From a virus (Duplodnaviria; Caudoviricetes), in the IMG/VR virus record IMGVR_UViG_3300031949_001696: 64,000 bases of DNA; one strand, 5' to 3'. Positions 3,027 through 38,666 of the stretch are shown piece after piece (the first letter of the stretch is position 1; every line of letters begins with the position of its first letter). Under the pieces are notes generated by a model. It was given only the letters and a program-made list of their open reading frames with translations. It was not told where the DNA came from and ran no database searches. The translations under genes and the position numbers were made by a program.

Positions 3027-3422
3027 ATGTCGCAAGCAGGCTCCAGGGGCGCAAGGAAGAAGAGTCCTGCGCAGCTCGACCGCGAGATCGCCGAGACGCT
3101 GCACGGCAAGTCGAAGAGCGGGCCTACCTATCTCTATGTTGAAGGCGTCGGACATCGCCTTCCGCATGGCTACGAGATCCACTGGAATTGGATCGCTCGT
3201 CGCGACGGTAAGAAGATCGACGGCGGGGCACTCACGGGGGGCGATCTTCCCGAGTTCTACGAGACGTGGCCTGATGCCCGTGGAGTAGCGGCTATCGTCG
3301 AGCAGATGACGAAGATCTTGCGAGAGTGGATTCCGTCTGGCGAGTTCGGTCGCGATCTCTCATCGAAGGTCAGCGTATCGCTCAGGAAATCGAGCAGCGA
3401 AGTGCCGATCCGGGGACGTTAG
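3027..3422 (+). CDS. Hypothetical protein with N-terminal [15 protein letters not shown] tag
   Basis: ORF; TAGAAT 6 nt before ATG; motif shared with six other genes. Confidence 0.75.
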   Translation: MSQAGSRGARKKSPAQLDREIAETLHGKSKSGPTYLYVEGVGHRLPHGYEIHWNWIARRDGKKIDGGALTGGDLPEFYETWPDARGVAAIVEQMTKILREWIPSGEFGRDLSSKVSVSLRKSSSEVPIRGR

Positions 3423-3456
3423 CGGGTTCCGAGGCAGCGCGTAGCACTCATGGCGC

Positions 3457-4128
3457 TTACGACAGGAACCGCTCCTCGGAGACGATCTCGGCGTCGATCA
3501 CGTCGAGGTGCGCGCTGCGCCACACGGGCGCAACGAGCGCTTGGCTGGAAGCGCGACGAGCGGCGGGACGGCGATCCGTCGTGACAGTCGGCGTGCGGTG
3601 CGGCGCGGGGGCCTCGACCGCCGCGCTGGTGCGGCTACGCGCACGGGTCGCGACGCGCCGCGCGTCCGCCTCGCGGCGCTTGTTCGTCGCGTCGCGCGCG
3701 AGCGCGATCACCGATCCGTTCGCGACTGCGTTGATCAGGATCAAGACTGCGAGCGCGATCGCACTCACCGCGCCCGTGGCCACCAGCATCACGCCCTCCA
3801 GGGCGAGTACGAAGCCGAGGGCCTTGCGCGAGTCGCCGAACGCCGCCTTGCCGAACTTGTAGACCGAGATCGCCGAGAAGCACGCACAGCCGAGCACGAC
3901 CGCGACCATCACCATCGCGAGTGACGTGTTCCCAGCGGACCAGGCTGCCGGGACCTGATCGTGGGCGAGGGTACGGCCGAACCACGGGACGAGGCCGCCG
4001 ATCAGGGCACCGATCAGCGCGGCGTGAGGATTGCGGATGGCGCATTCGAGCTGCGTGACGACGTCGGTGGTGGCCGACCGATCGACGACCTTGCGGGACC
4101 GCTTGCTACGCTTGCTGGCCTTGCTCAT
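3457..4128 (-). CDS. Multi-pass membrane protein (MSKASKRS...)
   Basis: About four hydrophobic segments; basic N-terminus. Confidence 0.65.
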   Translation of the reverse strand: MSKASKRSKRSRKVVDRSATTDVVTQLECAIRNPHAALIGALIGGLVPWFGRTLAHDQVPAAWSAGNTSLAMVMVAVVLGCACFSAISVYKFGKAAFGDSRKALGFVLALEGVMLVATGAVSAIALAVLILINAVANGSVIALARDATNKRREADARRVATRARSRTSAAVEAPAPHRTPTVTTDRRPAARRASSQALVAPVWRSAHLDVIDAEIVSEERFLS

Positions 4129-4269
4129 AGGCAGCGAGATAGAGCAGTTTGCGTGCCGGCCGTGCTTACTTGCAAGTAGGCGTCTGCGATTGCTGGGTAG
4201 CAGCGCACCCGGCGTTTGCGAGCCACTGTCGCGTAGTGCTCGAGATACGGGTAGCGGTATACCCGGGGC

Positions 4270-35200: not shown

Positions 35201-36918
35201 ACTTCGTCGTCTGCGCGCCGATGCCTTTGCCCATGCGGTCGTCGTGAAGACACCACGGTGGCTGGTGCATCGCCTTCTCCAGTAGGGCGCGAAGTGCAGG
35301 GACGTCGATCACGAGGTCTTCCCTCGCATCATGGTGACGACGTCGACCGGGCGCACTGCGGCGCGTGGCGCTTCGCCGTCTTCCTTGAAGTAATGGTAGG
35401 GCAGCGCGTTCCATTCCATTTCCCGCACAGTGATGAGCTTGGTGTCGTCGTCACGCATGGCGTAAGCGCACATGACATCGCTGACGGGTCTGCCGTCCAC
35501 GACGTCGCGAAAGAACGCCGTGGGCATGAGGTAGCGTTTTTCCGTCGCGCGATCAGTCCAGACTTTCATGCGCAGTCGCAGAGTGCTCATCGCAACATCT
35601 CTCGCTGGTATCGTGCTCGGCTTCGTGAGGTCGCCGATGGCCACCGAGCGCATGTCATGGGGGCCTTCGTGCCCGACCGGCAGTGAGCACAACATCCAGC
35701 CGTCGGCGCTGGTGATCGGACACGCCGCGTTGGTCACGACTTTGGTCCTTCCGGCGGCATCACTCGTCGATGTGCGGTCGATCCGGGCGCGTCCGCGGGG
35801 CAGCTACAACACATGACGTAGCCAGGCGCTGGATTCGGGTGTCTCTTGCCGTAGCCGCATACCCACGTGTCGTTGCTCGCCGCGCTGTCGGTCACGAGTC
35901 GGCCTCCTTGCGATCTGCGGCTCTCAGCACGGGAGCATCGTCGCTCGCCGGTCTGACGTCGATGGAGGTACGCTCCTCCAGCTTCATCTCCAGATCTTCG
36001 ACGACCTTGCGGAGTCGCTCGCAGTCGCGCCGAGTTGCGGCGCTACAAGCGATCACGAGAGGGGCACGCGTCTGCGGAGGCAGTCCCTGATCGGTCATGT
36101 TGGCGATCACGCGCGCGTACGACACGAGGTCGACCTGCCGCTCGGCGAGGTCCTTCTGGGCTGCGGTGAGCTTCCGTTTGTGTTGGCGGTGGCGCGCGCT
36201 CATCAAGTGCTCCTCGTCGAATCGCGGGACTCCGCTACTTGCGCTTCCTGCGCTTCCTCAGCATCGATTTCGGCCCAGATCGACACGAACTGCGCGCTCG
36301 TCAGGTACCGCTTTGCTTTCTGAACGAAGAGTTCTTCGCGCGCTCTCGACGACGAGTGCCGATGCTGCTGACCCTTCAGCTCTGTGAGCTTCCGCTGCAA
36401 CGCGAGGGATGTCGTTTGAAGATCGGCTAGGTGCTGCTCGCGTTGGCGATACACGGCCGGCGGCTCGTAGATGCCGCGAGTCGCCGCGTTTGCCTTCGCC
36501 CGGCCGATCTGCACCTTGAGTTGGCGGATCTCGTTGTCGACTTTGTCTTTCATCAGGACGATTTCTGATCGTTGCTTCTCGAAGGTGGTAGCGGTGGGTG
36601 CGAGGTGGATCTGGACGTGCCGCGCAGCTTCCGCCTCGCGTTGCTGCTGTGCACGCTGGGACTTGTCGTCGTTCTCGCTTTGCTTGACGTTGCGCCACCA
36701 GCGGTTGCGGTCGCCCTCCCGGGTGTCGTGCGGCACGTCGTGCTCGTCGAGCGCGTCGCTCACGGCGTCGAGGTCGAACGGCGTCGCCAGCGTGGGCAGC
36801 CACAGCGTTTGGCCATCCGGCACGTAGATCAAAATCGTCTGCGGGTGTTCGGGGAACAGCGTGATCCGCAGGGGGCGAGGATCGAACGCACACGGCATCG
36901 GCGGCTTCGTCGGCATCG

Positions 36919-37395
36919 TCATCGGGGCGACCTCGTGCGCTTCGTCGGCATCAGCTTCGAGCGCTTGGGCAGCGGGATCTTGTTCGCCTTCATCATCGCG
37001 GTGAACGTCGGGAACAGCTTCGGACCTTTCTTGTCCTCGACTTCCTCGAACGTGACGGCTCCCCGCATGACGAGGATGCGCACGCCGATCGCGTCGAACC
37101 CCATCACGCGGATCCAGCCTTGACAGGGAATGTTGGACAGGACAGGTAATTTCGGCGAAGCTTGTGAAGCGATGGTTGCTCGATCGCTTGATGATCGAGA
37201 CATGTTCGTGCCGTCGTCTTTGCTGCTGCGCTGAATGTTGGCGAAGTGGCAAAGCATGCTGTGCAGACCGTCGTCCTGGCAGTTTTGCCAGACATCGACG
37301 AAATGCTGCGGGTCCCAGTAGTCGCGCGGAGCGTCGATGCGCCACGGGCAGTTCGAGCACGGCCGCCGGAGCTTCGTGGTAGCTGCCTCGGTCAC
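36919..37395 (-). CDS. DUF6283-like Cys-rich protein
   Basis: PC.NCPWR.D, CH, C.GW pattern. Confidence 0.55.
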   Translation of the reverse strand: MTEAATTKLRRPCSNCPWRIDAPRDYWDPQHFVDVWQNCQDDGLHSMLCHFANIQRSSKDDGTNMSRSSSDRATIASQASPKLPVLSNIPCQGWIRVMGFDAIGVRILVMRGAVTFEEVEDKKGPKLFPTFTAMMKANKIPLPKRSKLMPTKRTRSPR

Positions 37396-38045
37396 GTGCC
37401 GACCTTCCGCAGCTCGGCGATGCGCGCGCTGCCCCGCTGGTCGCGACGCCCGATGAAGTCGCCTTGCAGCTTGATCGCAGTCTCCGCAATACCGCACGCC
37501 TCGTCGCGTGCCGCGGTCATCGCAGCGAGACTCTTCAGCAGTAGGTCGATCTTCGTCCAGATGTCGCCGTGCCCCGGCACCATCTGGTGGAGGTCGTCGT
37601 AGCCGCGCTGTTTCGCGTCGATGTCGCCGAGCAAAACGAGGACTGTCATCGGGCCCGCGGCGTCGGCGAAGACTTCACGCGCGTTCGAGTTGACCAGTGC
37701 CGCCGCGGCGAGCGTGCGGAGCTTCTCGATCAATGCTCGTTGTTCCGCTGTCATGGAGCCCCCACCTTTCGCAGCTCGGCGATGCGCTTGAGCTTGTGTC
37801 CTGCGACGGCGGAGTGCGATTCGGCGATCGCTGCGATGGCACATGCCTCGTCACGCGCCGCGGTCATCTCGTCGAGCGCGCGGCGCAGCTCTCGCTCCAG
37901 CAGGTAGTTGTGGTCGAGGCTCGCGAAGTTGTGGCGACCGCCGTGGCCGGCGTAATAACGGCACTTGCGGTCGCTGATCTGGTCGTACGTCGAGCACATC
38001 TCGGGTTCAGTGGTCACAAAAACCTCCGATCGGTAAGATGTGGGC

Positions 38046-38666
38046 ATGGGCAAGACCGCCGCGCAGCTCGACCGGGAGATCGCAAAAGCGTTGGCGCGGC
38101 CGAAGTCTCTTCGGGTGGCGTTCAGGAAGTCGCGCAGGGGGCACGCCACCGTAGCGTGGGAACCGCGGGACGAGTCTGGTGACGCGTGGGATGTCGCGAG
38201 AGACGCGATCCTGGAGCACGACACCAAGCGCGCAGCCGACATCTGGCGGAGTATCCGTAAGGAGTACGGCGTGGAAGCAACTCGTCCGCCTTCGTTCGAT
38301 AAGGCGTTGGCCGAAGTACCGGCCGACGTACGGCAGAGATTCGAAGACGCGATCGGTGTGCAAACGGCAGCCAAGCACGTCAAAGCGATTCTCGACGCGA
38401 TTTACCGGTCGAAAGATCCTGATGCGCTGCTCACCGCGGTGAGTGCGGCCACCAAGCACGTGACCGCGATGAAGCGCGTCGCGCGAAAATTTGGAGGCGT
38501 CAGCCGACTGCTTGATTCGAGCGGCGCGTTCGATCCCCAGATGAGCGATCTGAACAACATGCTTGTCGGCGCCAAGGAAATGGTGCGGAGGATCAAGATT
38601 CAGCGCAAGACGGGGCGCTTGCCGAAGGCGACGAGCAGGACCGCTTGGCGTACGCGCGGAATGTGA
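38046..38666 (+). CDS. Counter-oriented leaderless gene with N-terminal [14 protein letters not shown] tag, GHAT and WDVARDAILEHD module
   Basis: TAAGAT 6 nt before ATG; homologous to 17060-17836. Confidence 0.78.
   Translation: MGKTAAQLDREIAKALARPKSLRVAFRKSRRGHATVAWEPRDESGDAWDVARDAILEHDTKRAADIWRSIRKEYGVEATRPPSFDKALAEVPADVRQRFEDAIGVQTAAKHVKAILDAIYRSKDPDALLTAVSAATKHVTAMKRVARKFGGVSRLLDSSGAFDPQMSDLNNMLVGAKEMVRRIKIQRKTGRLPKATSRTAWRTRGM

Follow-up and report, generated by a model that had tools for sequence, protein, structure and literature searches.

How does one short peptide come to be carried by otherwise different viral proteins, and what might read it? The question was raised by a 64,000-nt stretch of the metagenomic virus record IMGVR_UViG_3300031949_001696 (Duplodnaviria; Caudoviricetes), hereafter the window, for which an earlier note had described a recurrent 14-residue peptide on seven proteins encoded between positions 3027 and 38,666. 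In this study, the peptide, hereafter the tag, was characterized as a short capped amphipathic helix occurring on many unrelated cargos and linked to a second, junction-like motif. The favoured interpretation, to which we assign a probability of roughly 0.35, is a clade-specific portable docking tag whose carriers would be loaded into the virion and later released by proteolysis.

The tag in the window and its anatomy

The window has a base composition of 64% G+C, with short, densely packed genes, many of them overlapping by 4 nt. It belongs to an uncultured soil virus and derives from a 267,828-bp metagenome contig (ENA ERZ27256953) whose independent gene calls agree with three of the tagged genes. 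A six-frame search of the whole window with the pattern L[DE]x[DE]IA returned seven matches, exactly the seven sites noted before and no others. The full motif K-[ST]-x-x-[QE]-L-[DE]-x-[DE]-I-A-x-x-L also occurred seven times, compared to none in 300 codon-block shuffles of the window and an expectation of 4e-6 from amino-acid composition. Using a hidden Markov model (HMM) built from clade tags, the seven sites scored 20.6–37.2 bits versus 10.4 bits for the next window match. Every peptide reported in the earlier note was recovered at its place. Tags are encoded on either strand and found towards the N- or the C-terminus, in one case internally:

3027..3422, + strand: tag carrier, 131 aa; N-terminal tag at 3060-3101 (37.2 bits); independent gene call on the source contig
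4940..5407, + strand: tag carrier, 155 aa; C-terminal tag at 5351-5392, then GRRR and the stop codon (26.6 bits)
8347..8799, + strand: tag carrier, 150 aa; small N-terminal domain, then a Lys/Ala/Pro-rich tail with an internal tag at 8653-8694 (27.7 bits)
17060..17836, − strand: tag carrier, 258 aa; N-terminal tag at 17774-17815, basic disordered linker with H-A-T at 17735-17743, all-alpha cargo
23398..23847, + strand: tag carrier, 149 aa; N-terminal tag at 23404-23445 (20.6 bits); opens a three-gene run with 4-nt overlaps
24452..24775, + strand: tag carrier, 107 aa; C-terminal tag at 24701-24742; its family shuffles modules around the tag in relatives
38040..38666, + strand: tag carrier, 208 aa; N-terminal tag at 38052-38093, H-A-T at 38142-38150; paralogue of 17060..17836 over about 77 residues

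The carriers had been called seven unrelated proteins. After tag masking, the products of 17060..17836 and 38040..38666 proved to be paralogues (49% identity over 77 residues, E 2e-15), and the other pairs, compared outside the tag, showed no significant similarity, which leaves six unrelated cargos. The statement that the flanks are always basic held broadly, with isoelectric points (pI) of 9.4–10.6 in six of the seven carriers. Conservation at the protein level was likewise borne out: the tag copies of the window use different codons, and clade copies with an identical peptide differ on average at 5.8 of 42 nt (~14%). A DNA-level signal was rejected, as codons vary among identical peptides. 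Codon skew at L5 (CTC over CTG) and A10 (GCC over GCG) exceeded genome usage; such a choice would keep out the palindromes CAGCTG and CGCG and may reflect restriction-site avoidance.

The tag consensus is K-[ST][12 protein letters not shown], flanked by basic disordered linkers. Residues conserved without being forced by the search pattern were K at −1, P/A at 2, A at 3, R/A at 7, E at 11 and A at 12. S/T-x-x-Q is a classic helix capping box, and the tag is a short capped amphipathic helix in which S/T forms the N-cap and Q closes the box. Its narrow hydrophobic stripe (L5, I9, A12, L13) is accompanied by acidic residues beside it (D6, E8, E11). In a minority variant, Q-L-Q-R-E-I-D-E-A-L, the acid is shifted from position 6 to 10 on the same helix face. 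This swap from D6/A10 to Q6/D10 (Fisher's test, p = 2e-4, relatedness ignored) hints at a contact with a partner.

According to the AlphaFold2 (AF2) model of the 17060..17836 product, a helix at residues 10–25 is followed by a disordered linker at 25–37, which holds H-A-T (predicted local distance difference test, pLDDT, <50), and by a confident all-alpha cargo from residue 41. The fold of this cargo had no significant match in the PDB (Foldseek E ≥ 0.9; VIA Z ≤ 7.3, generic helical hairpins; Atlas TM ≤ 0.33). Median pI was 9.7 for tagged and 8.9 for untagged proteins, and transmembrane-like segments were found in no tagged protein versus 12 untagged ones. Among 126 distinct tags from clade loci, 79 (63%) lay within 10 codons of the start, 18 (14%) lay within 12 residues of the stop and 18 (14%) were internal, directly behind H-[AS]-[TKR]-K-K. 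The global matches comprised 80 N-terminal, 65 internal and 4 C-terminal tags. No common promoter was recognized by eye upstream of the tagged genes.

Two other identities for the peptide were rejected. A coiled-coil heptad repeat of at least three heptads was ruled out by the 14-residue length of the conserved stretch. The beta-clamp motif QL[SD]LF did not fit Q-L-D-R-E-I, which has R/A followed by E, and never L-F, at positions 4 and 5.

Portability and distribution across a clade

Cargos were clustered by BLASTP with the tags masked. The 132 tagged open reading frames (ORFs) from clade loci formed 87 cargo clusters, 60 of them singletons, and the best 144 true matches of the global profile search also formed 87 (66 singletons), strongly supporting the proposal of a portable peptide on many unrelated cargos. 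Some homologous cargos stood alone behind an N-terminal tag, and others were fused downstream of a further module; within clusters, the tag was N-terminal in some members and internal where a module had been fused in front. The tag plus its downstream module therefore appears to act as a unit. One such tag-plus-cargo unit lies inside a protein in locus L001 and forms, in L190 and L218, a separate gene with the tag N-terminal. The family of 24452..24775 was arranged as A-tag, A-HAT-tag-X-HAT-C, B-HAT-tag-HST-C, B-HST-tag-HAT-D and B-HAT-variant tag-E, and some proteins contained two or three tags.

No Pfam or PHROGs match covered the tag region in the seven window carriers (E ≤ 0.1) or in 64 and 126 further carriers (E ≤ 0.001), and an ESM Atlas feature search with the tag region gave no usable match. 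Recognized cargo families (Pfam, PHROGs) were single cases, namely DUF6496, ParB_N, PhoU, PARP/ART-PolyVal, Sigma70_r4 and DUF5661. In the carrier 8347..8799, whose orthologues in L254 and L225 retain the tag, residues ~75–150 form a Lys/Ala/Pro-rich, histone-H1-like tail around the tag; its composition suggests a DNA-binding carrier.

Searching 1.84 billion cluster representatives with the tag profile yielded 445 proteins at E ≤ 1e-3. With a degenerate DNA pattern, more than 114 metagenome records were matched, several of them with many copies; tag-rich records included one contig of 5.9 kb, on which seven or more tags were found, and two contigs of 461 and 473 kb. Extending the motif HMM to relatives, as the earlier note had proposed, revealed about 180 tags (≥12 bits) in ~478 kb of related metagenome loci. 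In L184, nine tags lay within 19.4 kb, and about a quarter of the genes there were tagged. Orthologues of the 17060..17836 product at 53–64% identity kept the N-terminal tag while the linker behind it drifted, and some retained the tag with the middle module absent. The most distant orthologue, P0017, was without the tag, and the whole 20.5-kb locus that encodes it (L185) was tag-free.

Among 50,697 phage records, no close relative of the window was found by megablast of 20 kb or tblastn of one carrier, and two tag segments gave no tblastn match at E ≤ 10. Relatives in IMG/VR were sought with an exact 45-mer and a family profile, with no match. Degenerate-pattern matches in IMG/VR (61 loci) were discarded as unrelated coiled coils or housekeeping proteins lacking the xxL residue and the basic terminal flanks, and the same applied, among the matches listed, to more than 120 pattern loci in 185,579 prokaryote species genomes. 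Possible true tags among the prokaryote matches were present in a Chloroflexota metagenome-assembled genome (MAG; L136) and a proteobacterial MAG (L102), one copy being a C-terminal K-T-A-K-Q-L-D-A-E-I-A-A-A-L with a basic tail and one lying near an N-terminus. Both might represent relatives that were integrated or binned, and may give a clue to the host. In a 5.8-billion protein set, all tag matches were nameless metagenome proteins, including one NCBI entry, also nameless. Because tag matches were confined to nameless metagenome proteins and the other collections gave unrelated ones, the tag appears to be restricted to a single clade of huge, uncultured virus-like elements. Literature searches found neither the motif as a peptide nor a mention of DUF6496, and to our knowledge the tag system has not been described.

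A junction motif linked to the tag

A second short motif, H-A-T, accompanied the tag. It occurred 70 times in the tag-selected loci versus 15.2 expected from composition (4.6-fold), and H-S-T occurred 20 times versus 8.4, while the permutations TAH, HTA and AHT were at or below expectation. The usual context was R-R-x-[ASH]-H-A-T-K-K within polar, basic stretches, and H-A-T was never C-terminal (0/545). Occurrence of H-A-T and the tag in the same protein was strongly associated (odds ratio 12, p = 3e-18). H-A-T directly preceded internal tags, and it followed the tag by 4–20 residues in 26 of 126 cases from the loci and 52 of 149 global matches. It also parts tagless modules, for example flanking DUF6496 modules on both sides.

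In some relatives the tag is bracketed by two such motifs (HAT-KK-tag-...-HAT), an arrangement in which the tag would be excisable. The residues that would start behind a putative H-A-T cut, K-K-[ST], are those of N-terminal tags, M-x-K-K-[ST]. H-A-T, which brackets the tag at module junctions, looks like a processing site. Three further genes of the window concern the junction:

19182..19691, − strand: untagged two-module protein, 169 aa; H-A-T-M-K-K junction at 19371-19379 in a Ser/Lys/Arg-rich linker
23844..24455, + strand: untagged protein, 203 aa, middle gene of the three-gene run; DUF6496 module, then H-A-T at 24024-24032 and H-A-S at 24237-24245
9128..9514, + strand: YgjP-like/WLM-like zinc metallopeptidase, 128 aa, with HELVH; only a candidate junction protease

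The DUF6496 module of Pfam is a basic helical hairpin (H-E-[FM]-K-x-G-x-L-x-S) that recurs in the clade, is bracketed by H-A-T and is often fused to the tag. Besides 23844..24455 (+) in the window, it was found in L001 (8417-9457), L202, L231, L238, L247, L254 and L264, and in relatives the order DUF6496 - HAT - KK - tag occurs within one protein. The module and a tag segment were modelled as a pair because they are fused in relatives and adjacent in the window; the complex prediction scored 0.02, was run with no controls and is evidence neither way.

Homologues of the YgjP/WLM-like enzyme lay close to tagged genes in L001 and L184, and in one relative a variant tag, a zinc ribbon and two GHA[RK]K junctions precede the enzyme. 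By this proximity, it is only a candidate for the junction protease.

Elsewhere in the window, positions 1-2285 contain the 3' part of a gene for Ro60 (552 aa when the complete contig is read), which is separated by 3 nt from an Rnl2-type RNA ligase gene, and then a non-coding tract. A VapE-type primase/helicase is also encoded. Among the 76 window proteins scanned with Pfam, translation-related domains were an RF-1/PCRF release factor and a PTH2 peptidyl-tRNA hydrolase; a NUDIX domain was found as well. ARAGORN predicted six tRNA-like genes at 6809-6883, 11704-12082, 12853-12926 and 25117-25213: Phe(aaa), one with a 4-base anticodon (gatg), Ile(aat), Arg(tct), Met(cat) and a 97-nt Gly(gcc), several anticodons being unusual for a bacterial system. 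Relatives encode IF3, Cpn10, DnaJ and a class II tRNA synthetase. In L184, a 513-aa Ser/Thr protein kinase is encoded at 10112-11653 (−) in the middle of the tag-rich region.

Candidate functions and comparison with known systems

With the tag, its portability, the helix-plus-linker anatomy and the linked junction motif established, the presence of a portable helix under peptide-level selection, together with that motif, on hundreds of unrelated soluble proteins points to a docking or address peptide recognized by a common reader. One partner would read the tag and gather many unrelated accessory proteins in one place. In the favoured version, the tagged proteins would enter the assembling particle along with the DNA, and a viral protease would then cut between [R/S]-H-A-T and K-K, stripping the tag or parting fused modules. 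Such a scheme would parallel the capsid-targeting sequence (CTS) and prohead protease of phage T4. Capsid loading and effector delivery, as put forward in the earlier note, form a reasonable hypothesis; as the carriers fall almost entirely outside known families, the term effector delivery is a tentative one.

Several considerations weigh against virion loading. We infer the single reader, the virion destination and cleavage at H-A-T for a virus that is uncultured, and the capsid genes lie outside the window. Nearly all cargos are without a known family, and nothing marks them as virion or ejected proteins. At the tag density seen in L184, packing every carrier into a capsid would seem expensive. 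Neither C-terminal tags nor tags lacking a nearby H-A-T fit a simple N-terminal propeptide model. The H-A-T statistics were taken on loci picked for carrying tags, and the enrichment may be overstated; the YgjP-like enzyme is outside the known maturation protease families, and only proximity ties it to H-A-T.

Other explanations give the helix a different partner. Tag helices might bind each other or a repetitive coiled-coil scaffold, so that the carriers would co-assemble in an intracellular body such as a factory or condensate and not in a particle. E-I-A-x-A-L, which makes up the latter half of the tag, equals a single heptad of the repeat used in classic coiled-coil designs. Hydrophobic positions of the tag fit a d-a-d/e register, two or three tags occur in some proteins, and the basic disordered flanks resemble those of scaffold or condensate proteins. 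The PDB sequence matches to the tag profile were all designed coiled coils, but they were weak and non-significant (E ≥ 0.05); moreover, 14 residues make less than two heptads, too short for a stable coiled coil alone, and no repetitive partner was found in the window. We consider this explanation quite unlikely. No likelier, in our estimate, is docking of many viral proteins on one host hub (a chaperone, protease, polymerase or nucleoid protein) to redirect or borrow it. Peptides that bind hubs are usually short helical motifs set in disordered flanks, the carriers are basic, and the few recognizable cargos are related to nucleic acids (ParB_N, Sigma70_r4, the H1-like tail, PhoU, ART-PolyVal). 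However, the matches listed from the prokaryote species genomes include no host protein class with the same motif, unlike what an endogenous ligand would give, and it is hard to see why a single host site should be contested by hundreds of different viral proteins.

The conservation might also arise with no dedicated reader, if the tag and H-A-T junction were mainly a recombination or linker cassette for module shuffling. Tags do lie exactly at the joints of shuffled modules, and the codon skew at L5 and A10 makes the DNA copies more alike than necessary, although avoidance of CAGCTG and CGCG might explain this too. Yet conservation acts on the peptide, with ~14% of nucleotides differing between identical copies; the conserved positions are those of the capping box and the amphipathic face, most tags are terminal and not at joints, and a neutral linker would not hold 10 of 14 residues over hundreds of families. 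A cassette is still more doubtful than the two partners above. The least probable explanation is a degron or modification site by which a protease adaptor or viral kinase would time the life or activity of accessory proteins. Degradation signals for ClpX and Lon sit at protein termini, which the placement of the tag resembles; the S/T behind K-K is near-invariant, the T of H-A-T-K-K is a possible basophilic kinase site, and a kinase gene stands amid the tagged genes of L184. Against this, the helix N-cap role fully explains the S/T, whose rare exceptions include Asn, a good N-cap, as well as Arg and Ile. Internal tags are unsuited to terminal degrons, and the Pfam scan of the window proteins found no kinase.

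If virion loading, or another use as a true address label, applies, at least 445 clusters with almost no known family would become one functional class of a poorly known clade of huge viruses, and identifying the single reader would reveal where all carriers go. The paired junction motif would offer a new protease specificity and plug-and-play delivery of foreign proteins to that place, as the T4 CTS has been used. In addition, the shuffling of modules around a conserved joint can create protein diversity in large viral genomes.

Among known systems, the encapsulation peptides of bacterial microcompartments (BMCs) are terminal amphipathic helices with a poorly conserved linker that dock unrelated enzymes to a shell protein. 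These and encapsulin cargo-loading peptides resemble the tag as portable short terminal peptides docking unrelated proteins to one partner, and the AF2 helix (10–25), the low-pLDDT linker (25–37) and the variation of linkers between orthologues agree with BMC-type anatomy. In contrast, clade cargos are not metabolic enzymes, tags are mostly N-terminal, and the tag sequence differs from the encapsulin C-terminal motif. Pfam searches revealed no BMC shell family among the 76 window proteins or the large ORFs of related loci, and no encapsulin family in the window.

Polyvalent proteins of phages and conjugative elements, reportedly described by Iyer, Burroughs, Anand, de Souza and Aravind in 2017, offer another likeness, with highly shuffled small modules that include ART-PolyVal, ParB_N and zincin-type peptidase domains. 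Such proteins are thought to be delivered with the DNA and then cut apart. In the present clade, the modules are mostly separate small genes or proteins of two to four modules joined by the tag and H-A-T, and we know of no description of either motif for polyvalent proteins.

In the giant phages phiKZ and SPN3US, head and ejection propeptides are processed at a short consensus (PMC5694885, PMC10052503). The likeness lies in a huge virus, many internal proteins and a short consensus, at which cleavage would here be the inferred step; the consensus itself is different, and those phages have no addressing helix common to unrelated families.

The closest parallel is phage T4, whose internal proteins are diverse and basic and have nothing in common but a short targeting peptide at the N-terminus, cut off by the prohead protease after loading (PMC9026906, PMC3012670, PMC8442874). 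As in the T4 CTS system (IPI-III, Alt; protease gp21), the tag is a short, mostly N-terminal, cargo-separable peptide on diverse basic accessory proteins, with a recurrent short motif nearby that could be a cut site. In T4, gp21 itself is believed to be guided by propeptides that it carries (PMC9026906), and in one relative the homologue of the candidate protease is preceded by a variant tag. A gapped alignment of ten residues, made by eye, between T4 M-K-T-Y-Q-E-F-I-A-E and the tag M[13 protein letters not shown] is a superficial likeness; I-A-E is present in 56% of tags, yet E11 is not itself conserved. No homology to the T4 CTS was detected by tblastn of tag segments against the phage records, which should include T4-like phages (E ≤ 10), and no T4-type head genes were seen in the data examined here.

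The two systems also differ in layout. The T4 CTS is an N-terminal propeptide of 10–19 residues, whereas clade tags are 54–63% N-terminal, 3–14% C-terminal and 14–44% internal, and thus also occur at C-termini and between modules. T4 is cut at L/I-x-E, and the candidate cut here is H-A-T/K-K, in a clade that has yet to be cultured. The tag is carried by hundreds of cargo families and, within a region, by as many as a quarter of the genes. A doubtful but far-reaching extension of virion loading is a two-motif grammar, in which K-[ST][12 protein letters not shown] would serve as the address helix and H-A-T/K-K as a cleavable junction, so that hundreds of freely shuffled, unrelated small effector modules would be loaded into the particle and freed in the next host. 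Such a system would be a distributed plug-and-play counterpart of both polyvalent proteins and the T4 CTS system.

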